64,000 nt of DNA, taken from a bacterium. GTDB taxonomy: Bacteria; Zhuqueibacterota; QNDG01; CAYUAG01. The stretch covers positions 11,981 to 75,980 of the forward strand of contig JAWODZ010000126.1 of the NCBI GenBank assembly GCA_046483025.1. Direction: 5' to 3'. A program made the translations under genes and the position numbers. The notes beneath the pieces were generated by a model. The model was given only the letters and a program-made list of their open reading frames with translations. It made no database searches and was not told where the DNA came from. Below, in pieces: positions 4,578 to 51,926 of this stretch (the first letter of the stretch is position 1; every line of letters starts with the position of its first letter).

Positions 4578-4584
4578 AGGGATA

Positions 4585-5688
4585 ATGGAAGGAATATACC
4601 TACACTTTCCTTTTTGTCAGTCTAAATGCAGCTACTGTGATTTTTATTCCATTGTTTATTCCGAAAAACTGGTTTCAGAATATGTTCAGGCTCTGAAAAC
4701 CGAGATTCGGCTTTATTCTGATTTTTTCACCAGCAATAAAACAATCGATACAATTTATTTGGGGGGAGGTACTCCTTCCCTTCTTAAAATCGGACAGATT
4801 AAAGATATATTACATCATTTGTATAATGTCTTCAACATCAGTGAATCTTCGGAAATAACCATTGAGATGAATCCCGGAAATACCTCCCTGAAAGATCTCT
4901 CTGCTTACAGAGAGATTGGTATTAACCGGATCAGTATCGGGGCTCAGTCTTTTAAAAAGAATGAGCTGGCCGTAATGAAACGGATCCACAATCCTGATGA
5001 AATTAAAACCATATGTTCCTCTGTCCGGAAAGCCGGTTTAGAGAATTTCAGTCTTGATCTTATTTTTGGTCTTCCCGGACAGAATCTTCAGGACTGGAAA
5101 TACACCTTATCTGAATCTTTTTCTTTACAGCCAAAACATATTTCAGCGTACAGTTTAACCTGGAGTTCTAAAACGCCTCTGGGCAGAAAGATAATCAAAG
5201 GAGATATCCCGGCTCCTCAGGAGGAAATGGTAGCTGAAATGTTTCTGTATGCAGATGATATGTTAGTAGAAAGCGGATATGAGCATTATGAAATTTCCAA
5301 TTATGCCTTGCCGGGATACCGGTGCAGACATAATGAGGGATACTGGAATGGACAATCCTATCTGGGGCTGGGCCCGTCTGCTCATTCTTTCAGAGAAAAT
5401 AAGCGGTTCAGGAATGTTTCTGATGTCAGAGAGTATATTTCACGACTTTCCCAATCTTTTCTCCCGGTTGAGGAAGAAGAAGTGCTGTCTTCAGAACAGA
5501 TACGAACAGAACGTATTGCAGTGGGGCTGCGGAGAAAAGAGGGGATTGACATCAGGAAAAACAATATCGATCTGTCTGAAGTTGAGGGTTTTGTGCAGAA
5601 GGGATTGGTAGTTCATGATGAAAATGTACTTACGTTAACTCCCCAGGGGATGCTTTTTGCGGATGAGGTGGCGTTGCGGGTGGTGTGA
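4585..5688 (+). CDS. hemW: radical SAM heme chaperone HemW / oxygen-independent coproporphyrinogen-III oxidase-like protein
   Basis: CxxxCxxC radical SAM motif CQSKCSYCDF, GGGTPS motif and a HemN_C-like C-terminus. Ends with a TGA stop at 5686-5688. Confidence 0.85.
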   Translation: MEGIYLHFPFCQSKCSYCDFYSIVYSEKLVSEYVQALKTEIRLYSDFFTSNKTIDTIYLGGGTPSLLKIGQIKDILHHLYNVFNISESSEITIEMNPGNTSLKDLSAYREIGINRISIGAQSFKKNELAVMKRIHNPDEIKTICSSVRKAGLENFSLDLIFGLPGQNLQDWKYTLSESFSLQPKHISAYSLTWSSKTPLGRKIIKGDIPAPQEEMVAEMFLYADDMLVESGYEHYEISNYALPGYRCRHNEGYWNGQSYLGLGPSAHSFRENKRFRNVSDVREYISRLSQSFLPVEEEEVLSSEQIRTERIAVGLRRKEGIDIRKNNIDLSEVEGFVQKGLVVHDENVLTLTPQGMLFADEVALRVV

Positions 5689-7257: not shown

Positions 7258-8691
7258 ATGTCAGATAAGTATTCATTTATTATTGACGGAGAACATTGTA
7301 CCTCGGGAGAGGTTCTGGAAGTGAAAAACCCTTACAAAAGTGAAGTTATTGGTGTTGTTTTCCGGCCCGGGGATTCTGAGGTGGAAAGATCCATTGAATC
7401 GTCAGTCCGCGGCTTTCAGAAGAGCAGAAAATTTCCAACTTATAAGCGATCCCAGCTTCTTGCTTCCGCAGCATCCACTATTGATAAAAGAAAAGAGGAG
7501 CTGGCAGCCCTACTCTGCCGGGAGTCAGGAAAACCAATAAAATTCGCTAAAGCAGAGGTGCAAAGAGCAGTCAGCACTCTCAGCATTGCCTCTGAAGAGG
7601 CAACCCGTATAGTAGGAGAAACTGTGCCCCTGGACATAACTGAAAAAGCAGGAGATCGTCTGGGTATTGTACGCCGGTTTCCTGTAGGACCGATTGCCGG
7701 AATTACTCCCTTTAATTTTCCTCTTAATCTGGTGTGTCATAAAGTTGCACCTGCTTTAGCAGCGGGCAATACCATCTCTATTAAACCTGCCACAGCAACA
7801 CCGCTCTCAGCCCTGACTCTGGGGGAGATTTTTCTGGAGAATGATATCCTGCCGGGTTTTTTGAATGTTATTCCCTGTTCTTCACAGACAGCTGATAAAC
7901 TGGTTACAGATCCACGGATTAAAATGATCACCTTTACCGGCAGTGCGGAGGTAGGATGGAATCTTAAATCCGAGGCAGGAAAAAAGAAAGTCTGTCTTGA
8001 GCTGGGGGGAAACGCAGCAGTCGTAATAGAGCCGGATTGTGATATTAAAACAGCGGTGCAGCGCTCTATTCTGGGAGGTTTTGCTTTTTCCGGGCAGGTA
8101 TGTATTTCAGTACAGCGGATCTTTGTACATGAGAAGATTTTTGATGAGTTCACTGAATCCTTTCTCCGGGAAGTAAAGAAACTCATCCTGGGAGATCCTC
8201 TTTCCGAAAAAACGGATATAGGTCCTATGATTGATGAGGGTGCAGCTATACGAACTGAAGAATGGGTAAAAGAGGCAACCGATAAGGGAGGAAAAATCCT
8301 CACCGGTGGGGAACGGGATGGAAATATGTTCGCGCCCACAGTATTGACCAATGTACCTGCTGAGGCCCGGGTTTGCAGCGCTGAAGTTTTTGCTCCGGTG
8401 GTAGTTATGGAAAAGTATACATCTTTTGAGGATGCGCTTGATAAAGTAAACGATTCTGTTTTTGGTCTGCAGGCAGGAGTGTTTACCAGAGATATTGACA
8501 AGGCCTTCCGTGCTTTTAATACCATAGAAGTGGGAGGTGTGATAATCAATGACGTGCCTACTTTCAGAGTTGATTCCATGCCCTATGGAGGAGTAAAGGA
8601 GTCCGGATTCGGACGGGAAGGTGTCAAGTATGCATTAGAGGAAATGACAGAATTAAAGATTATGGTGGTTAATCATGGGCTGGACCGGTGA
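7258..8691 (+). CDS. NAD(P)-dependent aldehyde dehydrogenase (GapN / succinate-semialdehyde DH-like)
   Basis: 477 aa. Motifs ITPFNFP, catalytic Glu in ELGGNAAV and catalytic Cys in FSGQVCISV. Ends with a TGA stop. Confidence 0.85.
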   Translation: MSDKYSFIIDGEHCTSGEVLEVKNPYKSEVIGVVFRPGDSEVERSIESSVRGFQKSRKFPTYKRSQLLASAASTIDKRKEELAALLCRESGKPIKFAKAEVQRAVSTLSIASEEATRIVGETVPLDITEKAGDRLGIVRRFPVGPIAGITPFNFPLNLVCHKVAPALAAGNTISIKPATATPLSALTLGEIFLENDILPGFLNVIPCSSQTADKLVTDPRIKMITFTGSAEVGWNLKSEAGKKKVCLELGGNAAVVIEPDCDIKTAVQRSILGGFAFSGQVCISVQRIFVHEKIFDEFTESFLREVKKLILGDPLSEKTDIGPMIDEGAAIRTEEWVKEATDKGGKILTGGERDGNMFAPTVLTNVPAEARVCSAEVFAPVVVMEKYTSFEDALDKVNDSVFGLQAGVFTRDIDKAFRAFNTIEVGGVIINDVPTFRVDSMPYGGVKESGFGREGVKYALEEMTELKIMVVNHGLDR

Positions 8692-8871
8692 TGAGTTTTT
8701 TTGACCTGGAAAAACTAAAAAGAGTCCACTAATTACACTAATTACACGAATTTCACTAAATAGAATTAATTAATATAATTTATGAGGTTGCCGTAAGTGG
8801 AGAAAACAGAAGTTATGGGATTAATAACTTCTGTTTAATCAAAAAAAATTGAATGGATTACTGTTCGCACT

Positions 8872-10017
8872 ATGAAAAATTACAATTTTGATGCTTTTAT
8901 TGACAGGAATCGGACTGCAAGTTTAAAATGGGATACATATAAAGGGAAAGATATTATTCCTCTCTGGGTAGCGGATATGGATTTCAAATCACCTGATGTT
9001 GTGATAGAAGCCTTGAAACAGAGAAGTGAGCATGGGATATATGGATATACACTTCCACCTGAAGAATTGTATGAAGTGGTGATATCCCGGTTAAAGCAGA
9101 AATACGGATGGCACATAAAAAAAGACTGGCTGGTATGGCTGCCGGGTCTGGTGAGCGGGATTAATATAGCCTGCCGGGCAGTAGGCAGTGAGGGAGATGA
9201 GGTGATGACTGTTACTCCGGCCTATCCTCCTTTTTTAACTGCACCTGATAATATGAACCGCACTTTAGTGACCTCTCTCATGATCAGTGATCAGAACAGC
9301 TGGATAATGGATATGGATGATCTCCGCTCAAAGGTTACTTCCCGGACAAAACTATTTCTTTTGTGCAGTCCTCACAATCCCACCGGACGGATATTTTCCA
9401 GAAGAGAATTATCGGATTTTATTGAATTCTGTGTGGAAAATGACATCATAATCTGTTCTGATGAAATCCACTGCGATATAATTCTAAATGAGACTACACA
9501 GCATGTGCCGACTGCAGCTTTCAGTTCCGAAGCTGCAGACAGAACTATCACTCTGATGGCACCCAGTAAGACCTATAATATTGCCGGACTGGGGTGTTCA
9601 TTTGCAGTAATTCCAAACTCTTCTCTGAGGCAGTCTTTCAGAAAGGCAATGGAAGGTATCGTCCCTCATGTAAATCTTATGGGATATACAGCAGCTTTGG
9701 CAGCATACAAATATGGTCATACCTGGCTGACCGAGGTATTGGCTTATCTGAAAAAAAATCATGATTATGTTTATTCCAGTATAAAAGGCATGAACTTTTT
9801 GCATATGTATCCTGCTCAGGGAACCTATTTAGCCTGGATTAATGCTGCTGCGATTGAAAAGAAGAATCCGGCAGCCTTCTTTGAACAGTATGGGCTGGGT
9901 TTTTCAGATGGATATGACTTTGGAGAGAAGAATTTTATTCGTTTGAATTTCGGATGTCCACGTTTTCTGCTGGAAAAAGCAATAGATAGATTACACCATT
10001 CTTTAAAGAATCTATAA
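8872..10017 (+). CDS. PLP-dependent C-S lyase / aminotransferase class I (MalY/PatB family cystathionine beta-lyase-like)
   Basis: N-terminus FDAFIDRNRTASLKWD....PLWVADMDF is the MalY/PatB signature. PLP-lysine region SKTYNIAG. Confidence 0.8.
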   Translation: MKNYNFDAFIDRNRTASLKWDTYKGKDIIPLWVADMDFKSPDVVIEALKQRSEHGIYGYTLPPEELYEVVISRLKQKYGWHIKKDWLVWLPGLVSGINIACRAVGSEGDEVMTVTPAYPPFLTAPDNMNRTLVTSLMISDQNSWIMDMDDLRSKVTSRTKLFLLCSPHNPTGRIFSRRELSDFIEFCVENDIIICSDEIHCDIILNETTQHVPTAAFSSEAADRTITLMAPSKTYNIAGLGCSFAVIPNSSLRQSFRKAMEGIVPHVNLMGYTAALAAYKYGHTWLTEVLAYLKKNHDYVYSSIKGMNFLHMYPAQGTYLAWINAAAIEKKNPAAFFEQYGLGFSDGYDFGEKNFIRLNFGCPRFLLEKAIDRLHHSLKNL

Positions 10018-37975: not shown

Positions 37976-38020
37976 AATTTAAAATTATTAATTGTAATAA
38001 TGATAAGAAAGGAGAAGAAG

Positions 38021-38245
38021 ATGAAAGTAACAATTGACAGAGATGAATGCACTATGTGTGCTTTATGTTGGGAAACCTGCCCGGATTTTTTTGAAGAAAG
38101 TCAGGAGGATGGGATGAGCCAAATAGTAGCAGAATACAGGGATAACGGTAATGTTGATCAGGGTGAAGCTCCTGAATCCTTGTATGATTGTGTAACTGAA
38201 GCAGCAGAAGAATGCCCGGTGGAGATTATTCACATTGAAGAATGA
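38021..38245 (+). CDS. small single-cluster ferredoxin
   Basis: CxxCxxCxxxCP (CTMCALCWETCP) plus a distal CP (EECP). SD aggagaag precedes the ATG at 38021; the track ORF starts at 38000. Confidence 0.75.
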   Translation: MKVTIDRDECTMCALCWETCPDFFEESQEDGMSQIVAEYRDNGNVDQGEAPESLYDCVTEAAEECPVEIIHIEE

Positions 38246-38313
38246 GCAGGTTAATACTAATACCGCGATAATGATTTATAATCAATCAATTAGACATAAG
38301 GGAGGAAGAAAAA

Positions 38314-38709
38314 ATGAAAAATTTAGGTGAACATATTCAGCAAGCAGATTGGAAAACAGAAAAACATGTACCAGTCATTGAATGTTCGGATAAGGTGAAA
38401 GCGGAAGAAGTATTCGAGGTAAAAGTAGGATTGGGTAAGGAAGTGGCACATCCCAATACTACTGAGCATCATATTCGCTGGATCAGTCTTTATTTTTATC
38501 CGGAAGGTGATAAGTTTCCTTATGAAGTCGGTCATTTTGAATTCAATTCTCATGGAGAAGCTGTAAAAGGGGCTAATGAAGGACCGGTTTATACCCACCA
38601 TCAGGTTGGAGTCAATATGAAAGTTACCAAATCCGGGACTTTGCATGCTCTGGCTTTATGTAATATTCACGGACTCTGGGAAAACAGTAAAGATATTGAG
38701 ATTGGTTAA
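38314..38709 (+). CDS. sor: superoxide reductase (neelaredoxin/desulfoferrodoxin centre II type, 1Fe-SOR)
   Basis: EKHVPV motif with the E-K pair, His ligands, and CNxHGxW (CNIHGLW). Confidence 0.85.
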   Translation: MKNLGEHIQQADWKTEKHVPVIECSDKVKAEEVFEVKVGLGKEVAHPNTTEHHIRWISLYFYPEGDKFPYEVGHFEFNSHGEAVKGANEGPVYTHHQVGVNMKVTKSGTLHALALCNIHGLWENSKDIEIG

Positions 38710-38738
38710 AGGGTCGGGGAAAATTTTTGGGGATTAAT

Positions 38739-38789
38739 GATAGTGATGTCGAATACGATATCGATACCGATACCGATACCGAAAGTGAG
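38739..38789. repeat. hexamer-periodic GATnnn / CGATAC tandem tract (intergenic)
   Basis: gatagtgatgtcgaatacgatatcgataccgataccgataccgaaagtgag. Confidence 0.55.
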
Positions 38790-38825
38790 GAAAAGATAAA
38801 GAAGTAATATTACATATATTAATTT

Positions 38826-39851
38826 ATGGAGGCAATAATGATTGATATAAGTACTCAGTATATGGGAATAGAATTAAAAAATCCTGTCATTGTCGGAGCC
38901 AGTAGTTTGACATCGGATATGGAAACCATAAAACACATTGAAAAAGCCGGTGCTGGTGCTCTTGTGACCAAATCTCTTTTTGAAGAGCAGATTCAGCTGG
39001 AACGATATAAAATGGATGAGGACCGGGAGAAGTACAGCTATCGTAATGCGGAAATGATTACGGTTTTTCCGGAACAGGAACATGCGGGGCCCAAAGAACA
39101 TCTCTACTGGGTTGAGAAAACCAAGGAAAGTCTTTCAATTCCTGTAATTGCCAGCTTGAATGCAGTACATAAAGAAACCTGGATTGAATATGCCAAACTC
39201 CTGGAAGAGACCGGTGTGGATGCCCTGGAATTGAACTTTTATGCTTCTCCCAAAGAATTCAAAAAAGATGCGGAATCCATTGAAAAAGAACAGATCTCCA
39301 TAATAAAAAAGATCAAAGCAAAAGTTTCGATTCCGGTATCAGTGAAGCTGAGTTTTTTCTATACCAATCCTCTTCATTTCATTTCTCACATTGATAAAAT
39401 TAATGTTGACGGACTGGTATTATTCAATCGGTTTTTCCAGCCTGATATAGATGTATACAAACAAAAACACATTTCCCCTTTTCTTCTAAGTGAACGATCA
39501 GACAACCGTTTGCCTTTGAAATTTACCGGATTATTATCAGAGAATATCAAAGCAGATATTTGCAGCAGTACCGGACTCATCGAGGGTGAAGATGTGGTTA
39601 AAATGATCCTGGCTGGTGCAGCTTCAGTTCAGGTAGTGAGCACCCTGTACAAAAATGGTATTGATTATATCAGTAAGATATTAGAAAATTTACAATTCTG
39701 GATGGAACAGAAAGGATATACTGCCTTAAATGATTTTCGGGGAAAGATGAATAAGAAAAACAGTACTGATCCTTGGGTGTATATGCGTTCTCAGTATATA
39801 AAATTGTTGATGAATCCCAAAGATTTATTGGATAATTATCCTGTACCTTAA
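38826..39851 (+). CDS. dihydroorotate dehydrogenase-like TIM-barrel flavoprotein
   Basis: MGIELKNPVIVGAS N-terminus and overall PyrD class-1-like layout. The catalytic Cys position reads NFYASP rather than NxSCPN, so function is uncertain. Confidence 0.6.
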   Translation: MEAIMIDISTQYMGIELKNPVIVGASSLTSDMETIKHIEKAGAGALVTKSLFEEQIQLERYKMDEDREKYSYRNAEMITVFPEQEHAGPKEHLYWVEKTKESLSIPVIASLNAVHKETWIEYAKLLEETGVDALELNFYASPKEFKKDAESIEKEQISIIKKIKAKVSIPVSVKLSFFYTNPLHFISHIDKINVDGLVLFNRFFQPDIDVYKQKHISPFLLSERSDNRLPLKFTGLLSENIKADICSSTGLIEGEDVVKMILAGAASVQVVSTLYKNGIDYISKILENLQFWMEQKGYTALNDFRGKMNKKNSTDPWVYMRSQYIKLLMNPKDLLDNYPVP

Positions 39852-39866
39852 TCAAGGAGGGTTCTC

Positions 39867-40373
39867 ATGAAGGTTGCAATTTTATTGGAAAATCAGTATC
39901 AGGTTTTGGAAGTATGGTATCCCTTCCTCCGGTTTCGGGAAGAAGGCATAGAAACGGTTCTGGTGGGAACCGATAAAACAAATTACCTGAGTAAGGAAGG
40001 TTATCCGGCACAGGAAACAATTCCTGTTAAAAAGGCCAGGTCCAAAGATTTCGAGGGAGTAATTGTTCCGGGCGGGTATGCCCCTGATTACCTGCGCCGG
40101 CATGCAGAAATCAATCAATTTGTAAAAAATATATTCGAGTCCGGAAAACTGACAGCTGCTATCTGTCACGGCGGATGGGTACTGGTTTCAGCCGGGATAT
40201 TAAAGAAAAAAAGAGTTACCTCATTTATGGCCATTAAAGATGATATGATCAATGCCGGGGCAGAATATCTGGATCAGGAAGTAGTGGTTGATAATAATCT
40301 TATTACTTCCAGGAATCCTTATGATCTTCCTGCTTTTTGTAGGGAAATCATTTCCTTTTTAAAATCAGGGTAA
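39867..40373 (+). CDS. DJ-1/PfpI family protein
   Basis: Nucleophile elbow AICHGGWVL. 168 aa. Confidence 0.8.
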   Translation: MKVAILLENQYQVLEVWYPFLRFREEGIETVLVGTDKTNYLSKEGYPAQETIPVKKARSKDFEGVIVPGGYAPDYLRRHAEINQFVKNIFESGKLTAAICHGGWVLVSAGILKKKRVTSFMAIKDDMINAGAEYLDQEVVVDNNLITSRNPYDLPAFCREIISFLKSG

Positions 40374-40379
40374 AAGTGA

Positions 40380-41051
40380 ATGAAAGAGAGAATCATCAAG
40401 TACAAAGGCAGGGATATTGACGTCTATTTTACGGTTGATCGCTGTACCCATGTTGCTGAGTGTATCCGGGGTTCCCCGGACGTATTTAATGCGGGCAGAC
40501 GTCCCTGGATTATGGCTGATGCTGCAGAATCCGATAAAGTAGCAGAAGTAATTCAACGTTGTCCTACCGGAGCTTTACATTTTAAAAGAAAAAACGGAGG
40601 ATCAGAGGAGGCGGTTCCTGCTGAGAATGCAGTTCGAATTTGTCGGCATGGCCCTCTGTACCTGAAAGGTGATCTGAAGCTGAAAAATTTTGACGGATCA
40701 TCGATTTTAACAGATACCCGTATTGCTCTGTGTCGGTGCGGTGAATCCCGGATAATGCCTATTTGTGATAAAAGTCATGCTTTTACCGGGTTCCGGGACA
40801 AGGGAACATTTGCTCGAGGAAAAATACAGCAGAATTCAGACCAGGGATCACTTACTGTTACTCTCACAAAAAATGGACCTCTTCTCCTGCAGGGACCGGT
40901 GGAAATACTGGATCCGGAAGGTGAACTATGCTTTAAAGGAAAAACTGTTACCCTGTGCCGTTGCGGTCAGTCTCAGAATATGCCTTTCTGCGACGGAACA
41001 CATGTAAAGGCAGGTTTTAAAACCAAAAAAGATGTTGTGTTACATCATTAA
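40380..41051 (+). CDS. iron-sulfur protein: divergent 4Fe-4S mono-cluster domain plus two CDGSH-type [2Fe-2S] domains
   Basis: N-terminal C..C..C...CP-like CTHVAEC...RCPTGAL. Two CDGSH motifs: CRCGESRIMPICDKSH and CRCGQSQNMPFCDGTH. Confidence 0.8.
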   Translation: MKERIIKYKGRDIDVYFTVDRCTHVAECIRGSPDVFNAGRRPWIMADAAESDKVAEVIQRCPTGALHFKRKNGGSEEAVPAENAVRICRHGPLYLKGDLKLKNFDGSSILTDTRIALCRCGESRIMPICDKSHAFTGFRDKGTFARGKIQQNSDQGSLTVTLTKNGPLLLQGPVEILDPEGELCFKGKTVTLCRCGQSQNMPFCDGTHVKAGFKTKKDVVLHH

Positions 41052-41067: not shown

Positions 41068-42234
41068 ATGGCAACAGATCCTATTTGCGGTATGAAAGTA
41101 GATGAAAAGCATGGATTAAAACTCACTCATGAAGGTAAAACCTACTATTTCTGCAGCCAGCATTGTATGGAAAAATTTATTGAAGAAAACCAGATAACCG
41201 GAGTTCAATGTACTGAATGCGGTCCGGAAGCAAAGCAGCCTTTTTACCGCAATAAGCTGTTTATTGTTGTTTCCGCATTAGCAGTACTGTCGTTATTGTC
41301 TTTTTGGATTCCTTTTCTACAAGCCTTCCGCAGAGAATTATTCGACTATTTCCGAATGATCTGGTGGGCAATTCTGCTGGGGCTGGTTCTTGGAGGTGTG
41401 ATCGATTATTTTATTCCCAGAGAGTATGTCTCCCATGTACTTGCCCGGCCCTCCAAACGAACCATTGTTTATTCCGTATTTGTGGGATTTCTCATGAGTG
41501 CCTGTTCCCACGGAATACTGGCCCTTGCCATTCAGCTTTATAAAAAGGGAGCTTCGGTGCCGGCAGTGGTGGCCTTTCTCTTGGCCAGTCCCTGGGCAAA
41601 TATGACTCTGACTATTATGCTTATTGGTCTTTTCGGACTCAAAGCTCTCTTCATTATCCTCTCTGCCATTGTAGTCGCAATTATTACCGGACTGATATTT
41701 CAGGTTCTGGAAAAGGCAAAGCGGGTGGAAACCAATCCTCATTCAATTCCTTTTGATGAAAAATTTTCCATTGTGCAGGACATTAAAAAAAGAGTAAGAC
41801 AAACCAAGCTAACCTCTTCTACAGTGGGAGAAGCTTTCAAAGGGATTTTTCAGGGGATAGTCAGCCTGAGCAATATGGTTCTGTGGTGGATTCTGATTGG
41901 TATGGGGCTGGCGAGTTTGGCCGGAGCCTATGTTCCCAGTTCTTTTTTTGTGAACTATATGGGCCCTACCATTGCGGGACTTCTGATTACTCTGGCTTTT
42001 GCTACTATTATTGAAATATGTTCCGAAGGCTCGGCTCCCATGGCTTTCGAGATTTTCAAACAAACTGCCGCCTTTGGCAACAGTTTTGTGTTTCTTATGG
42101 CTGGTGTGGTTACTGATTACACCGAGATCGGACTGTTATGGCATAATGTAGGGAAGAAAACCGCAATTATGCTTCCAGTGATCACAGTTCCTCAGGTGAT
42201 CTTACTCGGTATGCTGGCTAACTGGCTGTTTTAG
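41068..42234 (+). CDS. YHS/TRASH metal-binding domain fused to a DUF318-type permease
   Basis: N-terminal DPICGMKVDEK...YYFCSQHCMEKF (YHS), then a second Cys cluster CTECGPE, then about 8 TM helices with an EICSEGSAP motif. Confidence 0.7.
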   Translation: MATDPICGMKVDEKHGLKLTHEGKTYYFCSQHCMEKFIEENQITGVQCTECGPEAKQPFYRNKLFIVVSALAVLSLLSFWIPFLQAFRRELFDYFRMIWWAILLGLVLGGVIDYFIPREYVSHVLARPSKRTIVYSVFVGFLMSACSHGILALAIQLYKKGASVPAVVAFLLASPWANMTLTIMLIGLFGLKALFIILSAIVVAIITGLIFQVLEKAKRVETNPHSIPFDEKFSIVQDIKKRVRQTKLTSSTVGEAFKGIFQGIVSLSNMVLWWILIGMGLASLAGAYVPSSFFVNYMGPTIAGLLITLAFATIIEICSEGSAPMAFEIFKQTAAFGNSFVFLMAGVVTDYTEIGLLWHNVGKKTAIMLPVITVPQVILLGMLANWLF

Positions 42235-42393: not shown

Positions 42394-42819
42394 ATGAAAG
42401 AAATTGGGATAATTGTGGATGTAAAAAAAGATAAGGGGATTGTGCGGCTGAGTTCGAAAAAGGAATGCAGGCATTGTTCTATGAATCAGCTTTGTCAAAG
42501 TACGGATCCCGGGAATAGAGTACTTGAAGTCGGACTTGGAGGGAAAAACTATCAGGTTGGAGATTGTGTGCAAATCATGACATCTGCTAAAAGCTATATG
42601 ACTGCTGCTGCATTGGTTTTCATGGTACCTCTGATTATTTCAATTGCAGGTTATGCTTTGGTGTATTCCATTACCAGGAGTCAGGGATGGGGAATTGCCG
42701 GTTTTACAGGATTCCTGGTTCTTTCCGGATTTTTTCTTTACTGGTTTGATAAAAGGTTTGGAAAGAAACGATTTTTCGAACCGCGTATCATTGGGAAAGT
42801 GAACAGGAGTCTGGGGTGA
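42394..42819 (+). CDS. RseC/MucC (SoxR-reducing system) family membrane protein
   Basis: N-terminal Cys cluster CRHCSMNQLC plus two C-terminal TM helices. 141 aa. Confidence 0.65.
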   Translation: MKEIGIIVDVKKDKGIVRLSSKKECRHCSMNQLCQSTDPGNRVLEVGLGGKNYQVGDCVQIMTSAKSYMTAAALVFMVPLIISIAGYALVYSITRSQGWGIAGFTGFLVLSGFFLYWFDKRFGKKRFFEPRIIGKVNRSLG

Positions 42820-42913
42820 ATCTCTGGATAAAGGGATAATTTATAAAAAAATGAAATGAGAAGGTCGGGGCATAATGAGTAGAAAAAATCAATAAGGTTA
42901 ATGAGGTGTTTCA

Positions 42914-44014
42914 ATGTTTATTGATCCTGTATGTGGTATGGAAATAAAGGATGATACATATTCCCTGTTGAGGAAAGGCAGACTATATCACTTTTGTTCT
43001 GAAGGATGTATGAAGCGGTTTAAAAAGTCAAAAGGAAAGTACATTAAACGAAAAGATTACGATCTTATTATTATTGGAGGAGGACCTGCTGGATTGACAG
43101 CAGCTGTCTATGCATCCATGCAACATCTGGATACTTTTCTCATCACCAAAGATATCGGTGGTCAGGCCATTGATAGTACAAAAGTTAAGAATTATATGGG
43201 ATTTGATTTTATTACAGGACCGGAACTGACCTCTAAATTTCAAAACCAATTTCTTCACACCCATTTCATCGATCATCGAATTGGTGAGGTCATTGCTATT
43301 GAGAAAAAAGAGAATCGGTTCTTGCTCCGAACCAGAAATGGAGAAAACTACATTGCCCTTTCCATTATTCTGACGACCGGCATGCAGAGAAAAAAACTTG
43401 GAGTACCTGGTGAGGAGAGACTTCAGCGCCAAGGGATTTTTTATAATCGGGTTCAAGATACCGGCCTCTTGGAGGATATTCCAGTAGCTGTGATCGGTGG
43501 TGGCAATACAGGCGTTCAGGCAGCATTGGACTTATTCAAGGTGGCTTCTAAAGTAACTCTGATTACTTTCGAAGATTTAACTGCCGACGCTCATTTGAAA
43601 AAAGATATTCAACGGTCACCTATACAGGTGTTCACACAGTATGCGGTTGTATCTATCGAAGGAGAAGATCGAGTCAAAGGAGTTGTTATTAGGCCTCGGT
43701 CAGGAGGCAAGACGATTTCTATTGAAGTGGGAGCAGTTTTTGTTGGGATTGGTTTAATGCCCAATACTTCACTAGTATCCAAACTTCTAAAAAGAAACAA
43801 ATTAGGAGAGGTCGTCATCTCAAAGGATTGTTGGACTTCTGTTCCTGGAATTTTTGCAGCTGGCGATGTTACGGATGTTCATGATAAAAGAATCGTTATC
43901 GCTTCGGGAGAGGGTGCAAAGGCAGCACTTGCTGCCCATCGTTATTTGAAAGAATTGAAGAGGAGTAATTCAAATTTTAATAAAGGAAAATTGGAGGATG
44001 TTGATTATGAATAA
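42914..44014 (+). CDS. YHS domain fused to a thioredoxin-reductase-like FAD/NAD(P) flavoprotein lacking the CxxC redox disulfide
   Basis: N-terminal [23 protein letters not shown]. FAD motif [12 protein letters not shown]. The region aligning to Trx[13 protein letters not shown] reads [13 protein letters not shown], with no Cys. GGGNTG second dinucleotide fold. GD motif AAGDVTD. Confidence 0.75.
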   Translation: [366 protein letters not shown]

Positions 44015-46094
44015 ACCTCCGGATTCAAGAAATAAGGATTACCAACAACATGATGAGAAGAATATGGGGCGTAAGAGGCATAAAGGTCAAAAGATACATG
44101 AATCGCATGACCAGCAGGTACACTCTAATCATAACAGGCATCATGATCACCATGCCCACATGGTGGCTGATTTTCGCAAACGGTTCTGGATTTCCCTGGG
44201 AGCAACCATCCCTATTTTGATCTTGTCGCCCATGATTCAGGGTTTTTTGGGTTTTACACAGGCGCTTGATTTTCCGGGGGATGTGTATGTATTATGGACT
44301 CTTTCCTCGTTTGTTTACTTTTACGGCGGCTGGCCCTTTCTCAAAGGACTTTTTAATGAACTGCAAAAGAAACAGCCCGGAATGATGACCTTGATTGCGG
44401 TTGCTGTTACTACAGCTTATGGTTACAGCAGCATAGTTGTTTTCGGTTTGAGCGGAAAGGTTTTTTTCTGGGAATTAGCCACGCTTATCGATATCATGCT
44501 TTTGGGGCACTGGATTGAAATGAAGTCGGTCATGGGTGCTTCCCGCGCCCTGGAAGAGATTGCCAAACTCATGCCTTCCGACGCCCACAAAGTCATGGAG
44601 GACGGAAGTACCGAAGACGTTCCCATCGAAGAGCTCCAGCCCGGGGACAAGGTTCTGATAAAACCGGGAGAGAAAGTTCCGGTCGACGGAGAGGTGGTGG
44701 AAGGCGAGAGCTCGGTGAATGAGGCCATGTTGACCGGAGAATCCAGGCCGGTGGAAAAACAAACCGGGTCCAGAGTGATCGGTGGTTCCCTTAATGGTGA
44801 AGGCGCAATCACTACAGAAGTACAAAAAACAGGTAAGGATTCTTTTTTGTCCCAGATGATCGATCTGGTGGAACAGGCTCAGAAAAGCAAATCCAGAAGT
44901 CAGGATCTGGCCAATCGTGCTGCTTTATGGCTTACTATCATTGCCCTTACAGTGGGAGTGATCACTTTGGCAGTATGGCTGGTTATCCTGGAAAGGGACT
45001 TTTCTTTTGCACTGGAAAGGACGGTGACAGTTATGGTGATCACCTGTCCTCATGCCCTGGGACTTGCAGTACCCTTGGTTGTTGCTGTATCCACCGCACT
45101 TTCCGCCAAGAACGGCCTTCTTATACGGGATCGGGCTTCTTTTGAGAGAGGACGTAACATCCAGGCAATCATCTTTGACAAAACCGGTACCCTGACCAAG
45201 GGTGAATTCGGTGTAACTGATACAATTTCATTTTCTGATGGAATGGATGAGAAAAAATTACTTGAATATGCTGCTGCAGTGGAAGCACATTCAGAACATC
45301 CTATAGCAAAAGGAATTGCTGCTTCAGTTGAAAAACCACCTGGTGTCAAGGATTTCAAGGCTATACCCGGAAAAGGTGCCCAGGGTCTGGTTGAGGGAAA
45401 GCAGGTCAAAGTTGTAAGTCCTGGTTTTCTCAGAGAAAATAATATGTCCAGGCAAGATGAGAGGATCGACACATTCAATTCCCAGGCGAAAACCGTGGTT
45501 TTTGTGATAATTGATGGAGATCTCAAAGGGGCTGTTGCACTGGCGGATATTATCAGGGAGGAATCCAAAGAAGCTATCTCCAGACTCAAGGGAATGGGAA
45601 TAAAGTGCATGATGCTCACTGGTGACAACAATCTGGTCGCCAAGTGGGTTGCAGAGGAGATAGGTCTGGATGAATATTTTGCTGAAGTTTTGCCCCAGGA
45701 TAAAGCTGAAAAAGTTAAGGAGGTTCAGTCACGGGGGTTGATTGTGGCAATGACCGGAGACGGTGTCAATGATGCTCCAGCCCTTGCCCAGGCCGATGTG
45801 GGCATTGCTATCGGCGCCGGGACGGATGTTGCAGTCCAAACAGCTGATATTATACTGGTTCACAGCAATCCCCTGGATGCTGTGGCCATTTTGGATCTTT
45901 CCCGGGCTACTTACCGGAAGATGGTACAGAATCTGGGATGGGCAACCGGTTACAATGCTTTTGCCATCCCTTTAGCTGCCGGAATTCTATTCAAATACGG
46001 TATACTTTTGAGTCCTGCAGCAGGTGCTATTTTAATGTCATTGAGTACAGTAATTGTGGCCATCAATGCAAGATTTTTAAAGATTAAGCATTGA
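43998..46094 (+). CDS. copB: heavy-metal P1B-type ATPase, CopB-like (P1B-3, CPH motif, His-rich N-terminus)
   Basis: His-rich N-terminus HKGQKIHESHDQQVHSNHNRHHDHHAHM. TM6 CPH (ITCPHALGL), not CPC. DKTGTLT phosphorylation site, GDGVNDAP hinge. Confidence 0.85.
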   Translation: MLIMNKPPDSRNKDYQQHDEKNMGRKRHKGQKIHESHDQQVHSNHNRHHDHHAHMVADFRKRFWISLGATIPILILSPMIQGFLGFTQALDFPGDVYVLWTLSSFVYFYGGWPFLKGLFNELQKKQPGMMTLIAVAVTTAYGYSSIVVFGLSGKVFFWELATLIDIMLLGHWIEMKSVMGASRALEEIAKLMPSDAHKVMEDGSTEDVPIEELQPGDKVLIKPGEKVPVDGEVVEGESSVNEAMLTGESRPVEKQTGSRVIGGSLNGEGAITTEVQKTGKDSFLSQMIDLVEQAQKSKSRSQDLANRAALWLTIIALTVGVITLAVWLVILERDFSFALERTVTVMVITCPHALGLAVPLVVAVSTALSAKNGLLIRDRASFERGRNIQAIIFDKTGTLTKGEFGVTDTISFSDGMDEKKLLEYAAAVEAHSEHPIAKGIAASVEKPPGVKDFKAIPGKGAQGLVEGKQVKVVSPGFLRENNMSRQDERIDTFNSQAKTVVFVIIDGDLKGAVALADIIREESKEAISRLKGMGIKCMMLTGDNNLVAKWVAEEIGLDEYFAEVLPQDKAEKVKEVQSRGLIVAMTGDGVNDAPALAQADVGIAIGAGTDVAVQTADIILVHSNPLDAVAILDLSRATYRKMVQNLGWATGYNAFAIPLAAGILFKYGILLSPAAGAILMSLSTVIVAINARFLKIKH

Positions 46095-46143: not shown

Positions 46144-46860
46144 ATGGTAATGAACGTAAAATTGGTTATTTTGATTTTTGGAATCTTAATATTTAATCTA
46201 CAGTTTGCTCATACTCAACATATTGAAGAAGAGCATGAAGATCATTTTCTGCATCCATTTCTGGCTCATATGGCACTCCCGGACAGGCCCGGTGAAATTA
46301 GTGTCAGAGTGTCTCCGTTTCAAGAACGTTTGGGTGTGGAGACGATTCAAGACATTGGTGTCCATATTGAAGCAGGAATTTTACCAAGACTGGGCCTTCA
46401 TGTCAGGAATGATGCGATAAAAGAAGGTCCTTATACGGAAATGATGATCATGTACGCTCTTATCCAAAATACTTCACTGAGTAGAGGTATCAGTCTATTT
46501 GGTCAGTTAAGTATACCGACAGGCCCGATTGAGTCCAATCGGAACAGGACATTGTTCGGATTAGCAGCCAGGGAAACCTTGAAAAAATTCGTTATCATCA
46601 ATACAAATGTTCATATTGATGTCAAAGAGGAGATGGCAGATATTGGAAGTTCTTTCGTATTTCGGCTATCGGAAAAATTATATCCTATCTTTGAAGTACA
46701 TGGAGAAATAGGAGAAGAAGAAACACATGCATCCGGCTTGTTTGCTTTAAAATTCAGGGTTAAACAACATACTGGTCTGGGATTTGGGTTCCAATTTCCC
46801 TTCAGTGGACATAAAGAATATGATACCCAATTGCTGGCCACTTTCGATTTGACTTTTTAA
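46144..46860 (+). CDS. secreted beta-strand-rich protein with His-rich N-terminus, putative outer-membrane barrel
   Basis: Signal peptide. HIEEEHEDHFLHPFLAHM. Alternating hydrophobic pattern. C-terminal ...ATFDLTF. Confidence 0.5.
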   Translation: MVMNVKLVILIFGILIFNLQFAHTQHIEEEHEDHFLHPFLAHMALPDRPGEISVRVSPFQERLGVETIQDIGVHIEAGILPRLGLHVRNDAIKEGPYTEMMIMYALIQNTSLSRGISLFGQLSIPTGPIESNRNRTLFGLAARETLKKFVIINTNVHIDVKEEMADIGSSFVFRLSEKLYPIFEVHGEIGEEETHASGLFALKFRVKQHTGLGFGFQFPFSGHKEYDTQLLATFDLTF

Positions 46861-46880: not shown

Positions 46881-47084
46881 ATGTTCGGAGGAATGATTAT
46901 TATCTGGATTTTTATAGTTGTAGGAGTTATCTGGTTGATCAGATATTTGACTGAACAAAAAAATATGAAAAATAATGAAATGGAAAAAGAAACCAGCGCC
47001 CTGGATATATTGAAAATACAATATGCCAAGGGTGAGATCAACAGAGAAGAGTTCAAGAAACGTAAAAAAGATTTAGAAAATTAA
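46881..47084 (+). CDS. SHOCT-domain small membrane protein (copy 1)
   Basis: One TM, then ALDILKIQYAKGEINREEFKKRKKDL, the SHOCT signature. Confidence 0.7.
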   Translation: MFGGMIIIWIFIVVGVIWLIRYLTEQKNMKNNEMEKETSALDILKIQYAKGEINREEFKKRKKDLEN

Positions 47085-47088
47085 AAAA

Positions 47089-47340
47089 TTGAAAGGAGTG
47101 AAAATTATGCATGACTGGGGAATGATGAACTGGGGCTGGGGCGGTATGATTGTTCAATTGCTTTTCTGGATAGTTATTATTGTTGCTATTATCTGGGCAA
47201 TCAGGCATTTTACCGGACCTGGTCGAAGTGATGGATCTGCTTCCGGCAGTGAATCGGCTCTGGATGTACTGAAAAAACGTTACGCCAGCGGAGAGATCGA
47301 CAAACAAGAATTTGAAGAAAAGAAAAGGGATATTTTATGA
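47089..47340 (+). CDS. SHOCT-domain small membrane protein (copy 2)
   Basis: W/G-rich N-terminus, one TM, ALDVLKKRYASGEIDKQEFEEKKRDIL. An alternative start at 47107 is possible. Confidence 0.7.
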   Translation: MKGVKIMHDWGMMNWGWGGMIVQLLFWIVIIVAIIWAIRHFTGPGRSDGSASGSESALDVLKKRYASGEIDKQEFEEKKRDIL

Positions 47341-47732
47341 AAAAAACTTCATATGCATTCACCAAAACAGTAAATAGAGATTTTGACCAAACCATTCAGA
47401 AACTTACGGAAGAATTGAAAAAGGAGGGTTTTGGTATTCTGACTGAGATTGATGTTCAGGCTACTCTTAAGAAAAAACTGGATGTTGATTTCAGGCCTTA
47501 CAAGATTCTGGGTGCTTGTAATCCTTCCTTTGCCTATAAAGCCTTACAGGCGGAAGAACAGATCGCATTAATGCTGCCCTGTAATGTTATTGTGTATGTG
47601 AATGAAGAGAAAGAAACCGTAGTCGCAGCTATTGATCCGGAGGCCTCAATGACGGCAATTGATAATCCTGAATTACAGGGAATCAATAAAGAAGTTCAGA
47701 CCAAGCTCAGATCAGTGATTGAGCGATGTTGA
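47337..47732 (+). CDS. DUF302 domain protein
   Basis: 131 aa. GFGILTEIDVQATLKKKLDV...YKILGACNP is the DUF302 core. Confidence 0.7.
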   Translation: MKKTSYAFTKTVNRDFDQTIQKLTEELKKEGFGILTEIDVQATLKKKLDVDFRPYKILGACNPSFAYKALQAEEQIALMLPCNVIVYVNEEKETVVAAIDPEASMTAIDNPELQGINKEVQTKLRSVIERC

Positions 47733-47779: not shown

Positions 47780-48016
47780 ATGCACGGATGGGAGTTTATG
47801 CACTGGGGCTGGTTTGGTTTTATTGTGCAGATTATTTTCTGGGTAGCAATCATACTGCTTATAGTATGGGTGGCAAAGAAAGTCACAGAGTCAGGTTCCG
47901 GAGATCGATCTTCTTCTGCGGGAGAATCAGCCCTGGACATTTTGAAAAAAAGATATGCCAAGGGAGAGATTGACAAAGATGAGTATGAAAAAAAGAAAAA
48001 GGACTTGACTGCATGA
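47780..48016 (+). CDS. SHOCT-domain small membrane protein (copy 3)
   Basis: MHGWEFMHWGW.. TM, then ALDILKKRYAKGEIDKDEYEKKKKDL. Confidence 0.7.
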   Translation: MHGWEFMHWGWFGFIVQIIFWVAIILLIVWVAKKVTESGSGDRSSSAGESALDILKKRYAKGEIDKDEYEKKKKDLTA

Positions 48017-48274: not shown

Positions 48275-48781
48275 ATGAAAAAACAATTATTCATTTTATT
48301 GGTAAGTATGCTGGTACTGGCTTTGTTTACATTGCCGGTTTTTTCTCAGCAGCATCATAAAAAAGAGAAACAGGAAAAAATGGAAATGATGCAGCATGGA
48401 AAAATGATGGGAGAACAGAAAGGTATGATGGATATGCATCAGATGAATGTTATGATGGATTCTACCATGAAGAGATGCAAAATGACAAATGAGTACATGC
48501 AGAAAATGAAAGACAGTCAAATGATGGGTGGTAAAATGGGTATGAAATCCATGATGGGAATGAATCAGAACCTGGAGGGAATGGCACAACAGATGAAGAT
48601 GATGACTGAAAACATGGAAACAATGATGAACAGCGAAGAGATGATGTCTGATAAAGATTTTATGGAACATATGAATAAAATGCATGAAATGATGTCACAG
48701 ACTTCCAAAAACATGGACCAGATGGCAAAGATGATGCATAGTATGATGGAGCAGACTGACAAACAAAAAGAGATGGAATAG
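48275..48781 (+). CDS. secreted methionine-rich protein (about 30% Met; MxM/MxxM repeats), putative Cu(I)-binding periplasmic protein
   Basis: Signal peptide, then MEMMQHGKMMGEQKGMMDMHQMNVMMDSTM...MMSQTSKNMDQMAKMMHSMMEQ. SD ggagag upstream. Confidence 0.7.
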   Translation: MKKQLFILLVSMLVLALFTLPVFSQQHHKKEKQEKMEMMQHGKMMGEQKGMMDMHQMNVMMDSTMKRCKMTNEYMQKMKDSQMMGGKMGMKSMMGMNQNLEGMAQQMKMMTENMETMMNSEEMMSDKDFMEHMNKMHEMMSQTSKNMDQMAKMMHSMMEQTDKQKEME

Positions 48782-49676: not shown

Positions 49677-51926
49677 ATGAAGAAAATTTTAGGGATTCTA
49701 CTGGTTTTGTTATTATTTAATACAGTTTTTGCTCATAATGAATTGACTCCCACAGTCAATGGGGATTCTATTATTTATGAGCTTACCATTCATTATAAAA
49801 CCGTCAATTTTACCGGAAAAGAAACCCAGGCCATAGCGGTGAACAATTCCATTCCGGCTCCCGTGCTCCGGTTTCAGGAAGGTAAAATTGCTGTAATACA
49901 AGTGACAAACGAAATGTCGGAAGAGGCGTCCATTCACTGGCATGGACTGATTCTGCCTAATTTTCAGGATGGAGTACCCTATCTTACTACACCTCCCATA
50001 CGTGCCGGTAAAACCTTTACTTACAGTTTTCCGCTCAAACAGTCAGGCACTTACTGGTATCACTCCCATACCGGGCTGCAGGAACAAAAAGGATTATACG
50101 GCGGGATTATAATTGAACCCAGAGAAAGTACAATTCAGTACGATCGGGATCTGGTCCTGGTGCTTTCGGACTGGACGGATCAGGATCCCCGCAAGGTTCT
50201 TAAAAACCTGAAACGTCATAATGAGTGGTACGGAGTAAAGATCGGAAATGCTCCCTCACTCTGGGATGCAGTAAAAAATAACACCTTGATACCCCAGTTT
50301 AAATTATGGGCTGATCAGATGCCGGGCATGCATATATCTGATATTTATTATGATGCTTTTTTGATCAACGGTAAGAAGGAACAGGTATACGAAGATTTTT
50401 TACCTGGTGAAGAGGTCAGGTTACAGGTAATAAATGCTGCTGCCTCCAGTTATTTCTGGCTCACCTGGGCCGGAGGTGATTTGGAGATTATCTCAGCAGA
50501 TGGCCTGAATGTACAGCCGGTTAAAGCTGAGAAAGTTTTGATCGGGATAGCGGAAACTTATGATTTTATCATTACAATTGCGGAAGGTAAAAGCCTTGAA
50601 TTCAGGGCCACTGCTCAGGATGTTACCGGAAGTTCATCTGTTTTTATGGGGAGAGGAAAAAGAACAGAAGCTCCCGGGATCCCTTTTCCCAATTATCAAA
50701 AGCTGGGAAGAAAGATGGCAGAGCTGCACGGGGGAGGAGACAGTATGGAGCTTAAAGGTGATGAAAAAGGTGATTTAAAAAAGCATGATAATGTCATGAA
50801 AATGTCCAGTGATCATTCTACAGATAAAATGCAGAAAAATACGGACTCAGCCATGCAGCATACCATGCAGGAAGAACATGGTATGAAAGTAACCGATCCC
50901 ATGATTATGTGGAACGCGGGGTATTCTAATACAATATTAAAATCAGTGGAACCGACAAAATTTTCCCAGGATTCCCCGGTAAGACATCTGGTTTTAAATC
51001 TTACAGGTGATATGTGGCGATATAACTGGAATATCAACGGAAAACCTCTCTCAAAAGCGGATAAGATCAGGATAAACAAAGGTGAAGTAGTCCAGATTAC
51101 TCTGAACAATACTACTATGATGCATCATCCCATGCATTTACACGGTCATTTTTTCAGAGTGCTGAATGGTAATGGAGATCATTCTCCCCTGAAACATACA
51201 GTGGACATACCCCCAATGAGCAGAACAACCATTGAATTTGCTGCCTCAGAAGATAAAGACTGGTTCTTTCACTGTCATATTCTGTATCATATGTCAGCGG
51301 GTATGGCCCGGATTTTCAGTTATAATCACAGCATTAGAGATAAAAGACTTGATAAATATCCACTCAAAAATTTCTTAAAACATGACAGTGAATGGTTTTT
51401 CTGGGGTGATATCAGCGGATTAAGTCATAAGGGGGTACTTGAACTGGTTTTGTCCAACACCTATAATCAAATTAATCTAAAAGCAGAATATGGGTGGCAA
51501 CAACAGATATATGAAGCCAAATTAGACTATGAACGATTTATCCAAAATTATTTCAGAATATACACCGGTCTGAAAGCTGAAACCGAAGAAGCTGATAACT
51601 GGGATGATCCGCATACATCCGGCAGAGTCGGTATTCGGTATTTACTTTTGTATATTTTAGATACGGATATAAGCATTGATCATCAACTGAGACCGGAAAT
51701 AGCCTTGGAAGCCCATCTGCCTCTTACCAAACGCCTGATATCGGCAGGGCATCTGGAATGGAAAAATGATTTTGGCTGGATCAATGAATTACCTGAAGGT
51801 GTGAACCAGGAAGGGGAGCTGGTCTGGAATGTGAATCTTGAATATATTTTAGGAAAGAATTTTTTGCTTTCAGCCGGATATGATAATCGTTTTGAGTGGG
51901 GAGGGGGACTTAAAATATTATTTTAA
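49677..51926 (+). CDS. multicopper oxidase (CopA/CueO-like) with Met-rich insert and an about 210-aa C-terminal beta-rich extension ending in Phe
   Basis: Copper motifs HWHGL, WYHSH, HPMHLHGH and HCHILYHMSAGM. Met-rich segment MKMSSDHSTDKMQKNTDSAMQHTMQEEHGMKVTDPMIMW. Extension from about residue 540 ends ...GGGLKILF. Confidence 0.8.
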   Translation: MKKILGILLVLLLFNTVFAHNELTPTVNGDSIIYELTIHYKTVNFTGKETQAIAVNNSIPAPVLRFQEGKIAVIQVTNEMSEEASIHWHGLILPNFQDGVPYLTTPPIRAGKTFTYSFPLKQSGTYWYHSHTGLQEQKGLYGGIIIEPRESTIQYDRDLVLVLSDWTDQDPRKVLKNLKRHNEWYGVKIGNAPSLWDAVKNNTLIPQFKLWADQMPGMHISDIYYDAFLINGKKEQVYEDFLPGEEVRLQVINAAASSYFWLTWAGGDLEIISADGLNVQPVKAEKVLIGIAETYDFIITIAEGKSLEFRATAQDVTGSSSVFMGRGKRTEAPGIPFPNYQKLGRKMAELHGGGDSMELKGDEKGDLKKHDNVMKMSSDHSTDKMQKNTDSAMQHTMQEEHGMKVTDPMIMWNAGYSNTILKSVEPTKFSQDSPVRHLVLNLTGDMWRYNWNINGKPLSKADKIRINKGEVVQITLNNTTMMHHPMHLHGHFFRVLNGNGDHSPLKHTVDIPPMSRTTIEFAASEDKDWFFHCHILYHMSAGMARIFSYNHSIRDKRLDKYPLKNFLKHDSEWFFWGDISGLSHKGVLELVLSNTYNQINLKAEYGWQQQIYEAKLDYERFIQNYFRIYTGLKAETEEADNWDDPHTSGRVGIRYLLLYILDTDISIDHQLRPEIALEAHLPLTKRLISAGHLEWKNDFGWINELPEGVNQEGELVWNVNLEYILGKNFLLSAGYDNRFEWGGGLKILF

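Follow-up and report, generated by a model that had tools for sequence, protein, structure and literature searches.

The window analysed here, a 64,000-nucleotide (nt) stretch of bacterial DNA (contig JAWODZ010000126.1 of assembly GCA_046483025.1, positions 11,981 to 75,980 of the forward strand), contains a gene at 42914..44014 whose product joins an N-terminal YHS domain to a flavoprotein core of the thioredoxin reductase (TrxR) fold, a core that binds flavin adenine dinucleotide (FAD) and NAD(P)H and has lost the redox-active CxxC motif. Our analysis of related proteins and their genomic neighbourhoods showed a clean three-way link in which YHS fusion, loss of CxxC and proximity to a copper-transporting P1B-ATPase go together. 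The predicted role of this protein, hereafter the YHS-flavoprotein, is therefore probably that of a copper-handling reductase and not that of a thioredoxin or ferredoxin reductase, and we infer that a TrxR-fold protein has been repurposed as a metal-linked reductase. The features of the gene and its product are as follows.

42914..44014, + strand: YHS-flavoprotein gene (NCBI protein MFO7890434.1, an exact database match, P0001, which carries just the label 'FAD-dependent oxidoreductase' at NCBI)
42920..43048, + strand: YHS/TRASH-type metal-binding domain, residues 3-45 (Pfam PF04945), with a predicted ligand set of D4, C7, C28 and C32 plus M9
43058..43912, + strand: two-dinucleotide-binding FAD/NAD(P)H core of the low-Mr TrxR/AhpF type, residues 49-333 (Pfam Pyr_redox_2, PDB and Foldseek)
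43445..43459, + strand: former redox-active disulfide site, N178-R-V-Q181-D182 replacing C-x-x-C-D (alignments to TrxR and AhpF)
43496..43513, + strand: retained NAD(P)H-binding GGGNTG motif, residues 195-200 (G195, G196, G197 and N198 invariant in 120/120 family members)
43565..43576, + strand: T218-F-E-D221 replacing the 2'-phosphate-binding H-R-R-D motif of TrxR (TrxR alignment and family column counts)

The open reading frame (ORF) was present as first described, according to a program-made ORF listing, and encodes 366 amino acids (aa); a ribosome-binding-site-like GAGG at 42903-42906 lies upstream of its ATG with a spacer of 7 nt. Pfam identified both the YHS domain (PF04945, residues 3-45; E 8.3e-13, 48.6 bits against a cutoff of 30.3) and Pyr_redox_2 (residues 49-333; E 4.1e-38), in agreement with the domain fusion proposed in the initial annotation. 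The assignment of D4, C7, C28 and C32 as ligands was made by analogy with a previously described YHS domain (PMC4626032), and the metal site is accordingly a predicted one. BLASTP comparison with E. coli TrxR, the sequence used for it being consistent with the PDB matches 1tde/1trb, gave 34% identity (E 3e-42) and placed C-A-T-C-D opposite N178-R-V-Q181-D182 and H-R-R-D opposite T218-F-E-D221, reproducing the two replacements that had been noted earlier (CATC by NRVQ and HRRD by TFED). Similarly, CPHCDG of AhpF was aligned to NRVQDT in a PDB sequence search, while the FAD motifs (GGGPAG and GD) and the NAD(P)H motif (GGGNTG) are unbroken. The best structures in this search were AhpF (1hyu, E 7e-54) and bacterial TrxRs (E 2e-49 and weaker), and Foldseek with the AlphaFold (AF2) model returned TrxR/AhpF structures as top matches with a probability of 1.00 to TrxR. 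Lacking the active-site dithiol, the YHS-flavoprotein is not expected, judging from its sequence, to act on thioredoxin in the way known for TrxR.

Conservation was surveyed in the best 120 database matches out of 5.8 billion clustered proteins, and every one of these homologues possessed the YHS plus Pyr_redox_2 architecture. CxxC occurred nowhere in the flavoprotein core of any member (0/120), and the former CxxC site has the family consensus G-[VI]-x-[YH]-x-x-x-Q-D. The YHS residues D4, C7, M9, C28 and C32 are kept in 118-120 of the 120 members and the FAD and NAD(P)H glycine motifs in all of them. Since these glycine motifs and D4, C7, C28 and C32 are invariant or nearly so, the conservation pattern argues for a selected, family-wide loss of CxxC in an active flavoenzyme with a functional metal site, and not for a decaying pseudo-enzyme. 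At the columns equivalent to TFED the family shows S/E/T, K/A/D/Q and G/T/A/E; the family as a whole lacks the arginine pair and often has acidic residues at this 2'-phosphate position. Residues that are invariant in the family but differ in CxxC-bearing relatives include H121, M157, R172, Q181 and R326, where Q181 stands for the flavin-proximal Cys and R326 for a Gln that is invariant in those relatives. The tail beyond the last conserved helix has a median length of 15 residues in the 120 members, is unconserved and is modelled with a low predicted local distance difference test score (pLDDT), and the length of the core is that of TrxR.

In a library clustered at 50% identity the family comprises about six full-length clusters and is set apart by a score gap, with members at >=264 bits and proteins outside the family at <=240 bits. 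The next matches past this gap were glutaredoxin-fused TrxR-like proteins that keep CxxC; four of these (P0127, P0129, P0130 and P0138), the nearest CxxC-bearing relatives, have an N-terminal CP[FY]C glutaredoxin at the same fusion position as YHS. When only the flavoprotein core was used for neighbour-joining and the CxxC columns were masked, the YHS-fused proteins fell into one clade (bootstrap 128/200, or 180/200 if one divergent member may move). Because the core tree recovers a single clade, YHS fusion and cysteine loss most likely arose once. According to source annotations, members occur in Caldisericota, Chlorobiota, Bacteroidales, Nitrospirota, Deltaproteobacteria/Thermodesulfobacteriota, Omnitrophota, Planctomycetota, Acidobacteria, Myxococcales and some Gammaproteobacteria, and the family is rare and confined to metal islands rather than universal. 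A search of the plasmid database PLSDB found no family member, the best match having 38% identity over the flavoprotein part only, and literature searches found no publication on the fusion or the family.

The genomic context was compared between 29 YHS-fused loci and 55 loci of the nearest YHS-less relatives obtained from the same searches. Of the YHS-fused loci, 22/29 encode a copper P1B-ATPase within 8 kb, as against 0/55 loci of YHS-less relatives, so that the copper link which had been suggested for this gene from its YHS domain and its overlap with copB reaches well beyond the window, and this linkage spans at least seven phylum-level groups. C-x-x-C-D is kept in 50/55 of the YHS-less relatives, the other five being a group from Chloroflexi, while YHS-fused loci have Q-D instead. 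The ATPases are of the CPC type in 17 loci, often with N-terminal YHS, HMBD or HMA domains of their own, and of the CPH type in five lineages including the window. Their strand is that of the flavoprotein in all loci but one, and 10 loci, the window among them, have the two genes directly adjacent (gap of about 150 nt or less), in both gene orders. A Pfam census of 148 neighbour ORFs from 24 loci was topped by E1-E2_ATPase (16), YHS (12), HMBD (7) and HMA (5), and none of thioredoxin, peroxiredoxin, ferredoxin or flavodoxin was recurrent among these ORFs. Further contexts included Cus-type RND (resistance-nodulation-division) pumps, P-II proteins, SHOCT and DUF302 proteins, cupredoxins and, in one case, a type-II NADH dehydrogenase (NDH-2). 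The architecture is thus no rare noise, and it does not resemble a common housekeeping ferredoxin-NADP reductase (FNR) architecture devoid of metal association, the finding that the initial annotation had named as fatal to its proposal; copper-ATPase linkage was found instead.

In the window, the adjacent ATPase gene follows immediately on the same strand.

44007..46094, + strand: CopB-type copper P1B-ATPase (NCBIfam TIGR01511, 641 bits) with a CPH motif and a His-rich N-terminus

The preferred copB start is the ATG at 44007, which is preceded by GGAGG at 43993-43997 with a 9-nt spacer and gives a product of 695 aa in an independent gene call. From this start, copB overlaps the flavoprotein stop by 8 nt (ATGAATAA). 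The overlap noted in the initial annotation is therefore real; an ATG at 43998, which would make it 17 nt, is the less well supported start.

Several observations on related loci were made in the same survey. In L009 an in-frame fusion of the flavoprotein to CopB was considered and rejected, as a stop codon lies between what are two adjacent genes. The Chloroflexi/Anaerolineae loci L074, L075, L082, L083 and L084 (match at approximately 8001-8920) encode TrxR-like proteins with CYSALSYAP at the CxxC site and IGDEDLAL at the NAD(P)H site; they also lack the GGGN motif, YHS and an ATPase neighbour and were not accepted as family members, being a separate degenerate lineage that may be non-catalytic. 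In L086 (context of P0018) a type-II NADH dehydrogenase with Pyr_redox_2 and NDH2_C domains is encoded at 4122-5486 in a Cus/HMA/HMBD copper island, two genes upstream of the YHS-flavoprotein, and cupric-reductase activity has been reported for E. coli NDH-2 (PMC7558416). Small stand-alone YHS proteins of 46-51 aa (L001 183-323 and 7572-7727; L028 10377-10520) are encoded near YHS-bearing ATPases and a YHS-cupredoxin fusion, and by analogy with CopZ these may be YHS-type metallochaperones.

How the YHS-flavoprotein might act can be outlined from these data, and our tentative proposal, which we hold with somewhat less than even confidence and partly by analogy with known systems, is that it is an NADH-driven Cu(II)-to-Cu(I) reductase, or a keeper of Cu(I), that hands the ion to exporters. 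A cytoplasmic NAD(P)H-oxidising FAD enzyme of the AhpF/low-Mr-TrxR lineage would have lost CxxC and gained its N-terminal YHS domain in a single evolutionary event, and would now work together with copper-exporting P1B-ATPases. NADH would reduce the FAD, and the site of one Asp and three Cys in YHS would capture copper. NADH is the likely electron donor because the arginine pair that binds the 2'-phosphate of NADPH is missing throughout the family, often with acidic residues in its place. The YHS domain would take the slot of the electron-accepting partner domain of AhpF and the glutaredoxin-fused relatives, an acceptor position that is suggested by the glutaredoxin which sits there in the nearest CxxC-bearing relatives. 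The reduced flavin would then turn YHS-bound Cu(II) to Cu(I), or hold copper as Cu(I), and Cu(I) would pass to the N-terminal metal-binding region (YHS, HMBD, HMA or His-rich) of the adjacent exporter, which in the window would be CopB and possibly a YHS-fused ArsP permease. In this scheme we infer that copper is both ligand and substrate, as well as the way in which electrons move and the transfer of Cu(I) to the pump. Cu(I) is the form on which chaperones and P1B-ATPases act, and few specific cupric reductases are known from bacteria (PMC7558416). A motif scan found no CopZ/HMA gene in the 64-kb window, hosts seem to lack CopZ near YHS-flavoprotein loci, and the flavoprotein YHS is the sole metal-binding domain on a soluble protein in the island. 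A stronger version of this proposal, in which the protein would be the first dedicated and self-contained flavin-dependent cupric reductase/chaperone, combining NADH, FAD and YHS and handing Cu(I) directly to P1B-type exporters, is more doubtful.

A number of points weigh against a cupric reductase. All members found come from metagenome-assembled genomes of uncultured, mostly anaerobic bacteria, and in anaerobes, where copper in the cytoplasm is expected to be Cu(I) from the outset, there would be less need of a cupric reductase. A tri-thiolate site can also reduce Cu(II) unaided. The YHS-like domains of phenol and toluene hydroxylases are not copper sites (PMC4626032), and for this reason the flavoprotein YHS might instead bind Zn in a structural role or serve for docking. 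The basic family-specific invariants R159, R172 and R326 could equally serve an anionic, non-metal substrate. No copper ATPase was present in the available sequence of 7/29 loci, including L013 and L017 with 17 kb each, and the Fisher's exact p of 1.7e-14 for the ATPase linkage is uncorrected for shared ancestry. The AF2 model is of moderate quality (pLDDT 74.8; predicted template-modelling score 0.60).

Alternatively, copper sensing by YHS may activate an NAD(P)H:acceptor oxidoreductase whose substrate is something other than copper, such as O2/peroxide-related species, quinones or another copper-stress oxidant, the gene being simply co-regulated with exporters. We consider this unlikely, albeit the main rival. 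The YHS switch of the Mycobacterium phlei adenylyl cyclase acts through an 8-residue linker and the linker here is of similar length (PMC4626032); oxidative-stress genes flank the island (desulfoferrodoxin, DJ-1/PfpI and a CDGSH protein), the closest CxxC-bearing relative (L028) adjoins rubrerythrin, and the conserved R159, R172 and R326 would fit a non-metal substrate. However, no acceptor protein or pathway was recurrent in the 148-ORF census, the N-terminal slot of related fusions holds a substrate domain and not a sensor, and the close pairing with the ATPase, which occurs in both gene orders and often with translational coupling, suggests a partnership, physical or by pathway, more than simple co-regulation. 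The possibility that YHS is a metallochaperone or exporter-docking subunit, with the flavoprotein body as a scaffold or an NADH/NAD+ sensor that modulates copper export, appears less probable still. It would be consistent with the loss of the catalytic disulfide, with the failure to find CopZ in the window and with the many loci that have several YHS domains on ATPases, permeases and small stand-alone proteins, which suggest YHS-to-YHS metal transfer. Nevertheless, cofactor motifs together with new invariant core residues in 120/120 members from many phyla are hard to explain without catalysis, and the existing stand-alone YHS proteins of 46-55 aa would suffice for chaperoning.

The initial annotation had likened the protein to YumC-type FNRs, a likeness that was not borne out, and a ferredoxin/flavodoxin-NAD(P)+ oxidoreductase of this type with a general housekeeping role is very improbable. 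The TrxR fold without CxxC is common to both, as seen in B. subtilis YumC and the structures 3lzw, 2zbw and 3ab1, and a small 4Fe-4S ferredoxin gene lies 5 kb upstream of the flavoprotein in the window. In the PDB search, however, TrxR-like FNR structures (6gas, 3lzw, 5twb and 3ab1) matched at E 4e-25 to 2.5e-14, that is, about 1e-25 or weaker, with an approximate range of 1e-25 to 1e-14, in comparison to about 1e-53 for AhpF/TrxR (approximate range 1e-54 to 1e-49). TrxR-like FNRs carry a C-terminal extension that covers the flavin. This extension is absent from the YHS-flavoprotein, neither ferredoxin nor flavodoxin is a recurrent partner in the 24 neighbourhoods, and a rare family bound to metal islands differs from a universal housekeeping enzyme. 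The CxxC losses in the two groups appear to be independent.

Comparison with known systems places the NADH-driven copper reductase proposed above in context. The best sequence match is the C-terminal half of AhpF (1hyu, 4o5q and 1fl2), with about 35% identity and the same two-domain FAD/NADH fold. Both proteins have an N-terminal partner domain linked to the FAD domain, both lack the arginine-pair NADPH motif, and they share the cysteine equivalent to C306. AhpF is itself characterized by C345-x-x-C348, an N-terminal double thioredoxin fold with CxxC and AhpC as its partner, whereas the YHS-flavoprotein lacks both cysteines, has YHS at the N-terminus and has no peroxiredoxin nearby; none was found among the top neighbour families of the 148 ORFs or at 38-52 kb in the window. 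Identity as AhpF was therefore rejected, the protein having neither the double thioredoxin-fold N-terminus nor its CxxC nor an AhpC pairing and scoring far below the cutoff of the curated TIGR03140 profile (261.5 bits against 502.9, with profile positions 203-512 matched). Low-Mr TrxR (TrxB) has the fold and cofactor motifs in common with the YHS-flavoprotein, which lacks CxxC and HRRD, and identity as TrxB was rejected in view of the missing CxxC and of a TIGR01292 score of 244 bits against a cutoff of 343.45, even though the fold agrees. The glutaredoxin-fused TrxR-like proteins have a fused N-terminal domain placed as YHS is here, but keep CxxC.

Parallels in functional logic are found among metal-handling enzymes. 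MerA and RclA are, like the YHS-flavoprotein, NAD(P)H-FAD reductases encoded in metal-resistance loci. The N-terminal metal-binding domain of MerA (NmerA) hands its ion to the catalytic core (work cited in PMC8261052), and RclA reduces Cu(II) to Cu(I) with NADH (PMC7527725). Both are class I flavoprotein disulfide reductases with a glutathione-reductase-type fold, a dimerisation domain, active-site cysteine pairs (C-x4-C at the flavin and, in MerA, a further Cys pair at the C-terminus) and an HMA domain instead of YHS. Membership in this group was rejected, as the YHS-flavoprotein has no core cysteine pair and scores 54 bits against a cutoff of 454 for MerA (TIGR02053), although it may work alike all the same; because it lacks active-site cysteines, its flavin chemistry would differ from that of MerA and RclA. 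Archaeoglobus fulgidus CopZ, in which an Fe-S domain is fused to a copper-chaperone domain, and CcoG are alike in concept: each couples a redox cofactor to a module that binds copper, and Cu(II) reduction is followed by delivery of Cu(I) to a P1B-ATPase (PMC7558416). CopZ of A. fulgidus uses an iron-sulfur cluster with an unknown donor and an HMA domain, and CcoG is a membrane protein, in comparison to the FAD with built-in NAD(P)H site and the YHS domain of the flavoprotein. For YHS itself, the domain that makes the M. phlei adenylyl cyclase copper-responsive, with copper switching activity on (PMC4626032), has the same set of one Asp and three Cys and a short linker to an enzyme. It is C-terminal in the cyclase and N-terminal in the flavoprotein, the partner enzymes are unrelated, and it has a sensing role there where a substrate carrier is proposed here.

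The island surrounding the gene begins at 41068 and runs in the order YHS-ArsP permease, RseC-like gene, flavoprotein and CopB, followed by three SHOCT proteins, a DUF302 protein, a Met-rich protein, a methyltransferase, a multicopper oxidase and a cupredoxin. Apart from the flavoprotein and CopB, the features identified are listed below.

41068..42234, + strand: YHS-fused ArsP_1 permease (Pfam YHS E 6.6e-13 and ArsP_1 E 1.3e-37)
42394..42819, + strand: small membrane protein of the RseC/MucC family (Pfam E 3.6e-23), between the two YHS genes
46144-46860: ORF of 238 aa (orf238) directly after copB, with a signal-peptide-like N-terminus and a C-terminal Phe
46881-47084, 47089-47340 and 47780-48016: three small SHOCT-domain membrane proteins, downstream of copB
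47337-47732: DUF302 protein, downstream of copB
48275-48781: secreted Met-rich 168-aa protein (repeated MM/MxM), between the SHOCT genes and the multicopper oxidase
49677-51926: multicopper oxidase of 749 aa, with a C-terminal extension of ~200 aa at 51324-51923 ending in ...GGGLKILF

The permease carries the sole other YHS domain that a motif scan of the window detected and resembles the SO_0444 Cu/Zn efflux and SaoE families, with scores far below their cutoffs (NF033936, 118 bits against 300); it is a second candidate partner of the flavoprotein. E. coli RseC is part of a SoxR-reducing system. The RseC/MucC-family protein of the island has an N-terminal C-x2-C-x5-C and two predicted transmembrane helices, and was rejected as a family-wide partner, being lineage-specific: among the 29 loci it occurs in L005 and L085 alone, which are close relatives of the window, and weakly in L027. 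The product of orf238 looks like an outer-membrane barrel protein from its sequence features; Pfam gave no match for it, none of the other fetched loci encodes a homologue, and it was not retained as a conserved partner. SHOCT and DUF302 genes recur near the flavoprotein in L004, L007, L010, L023 and L086. The Met-rich protein has no meaningful Pfam match and looks like a candidate periplasmic Cu(I)-binding protein. The extension of the multicopper oxidase gave weak, sub-threshold matches to the outer-membrane copper protein CopB/PcoB (PF05275, 17 bits against a cutoff of 27) and to an outer-membrane beta-barrel family, and the enzyme may be a fused CopA (oxidase)-CopB (barrel) protein.

Just upstream of the island, a group of oxidative-stress and Fe-S genes at 38000-41051 encodes a 4Fe-4S ferredoxin, the superoxide reductase desulfoferrodoxin, a DHODH-like protein, DJ-1/PfpI and one protein that combines Fer4_19 with two CDGSH domains. 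The window also encodes pyruvate:ferredoxin oxidoreductase, which together with desulfoferrodoxin indicates that the host is an anaerobe. A scan for promoter and terminator consensus sequences at 37.8-49.8 kb gave counts near the shuffled expectation.

In terms of annotation, the finding of the YHS domain and of CxxC loss corrects the database names of family members, which are labelled 'FAD-dependent oxidoreductase', 'thioredoxin-disulfide reductase' or 'alkyl hydroperoxide reductase subunit F'; the latter two cannot be right for this family. In evolutionary terms, the family shows the TrxR/AhpF scaffold put to a new use, with its N-terminal partner domain exchanged and its disulfide relay removed. 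According to a recent review, hardly any specific cupric reductases are known from bacteria, the cases being CcoG and, in one archaeon, the unusual iron-sulfur CopZ (PMC7558416), and a conserved NAD(P)H-flavoprotein with a copper-type domain beside copper pumps is a testable candidate for this missing step of cupric reduction. Alternatively, the family could represent a new kind of copper-regulated redox enzyme. If a direct hand-off of Cu(I) from YHS to the exporters is true, YHS domains would form a metal-transfer network parallel to the HMA network of CopZ and NmerA.

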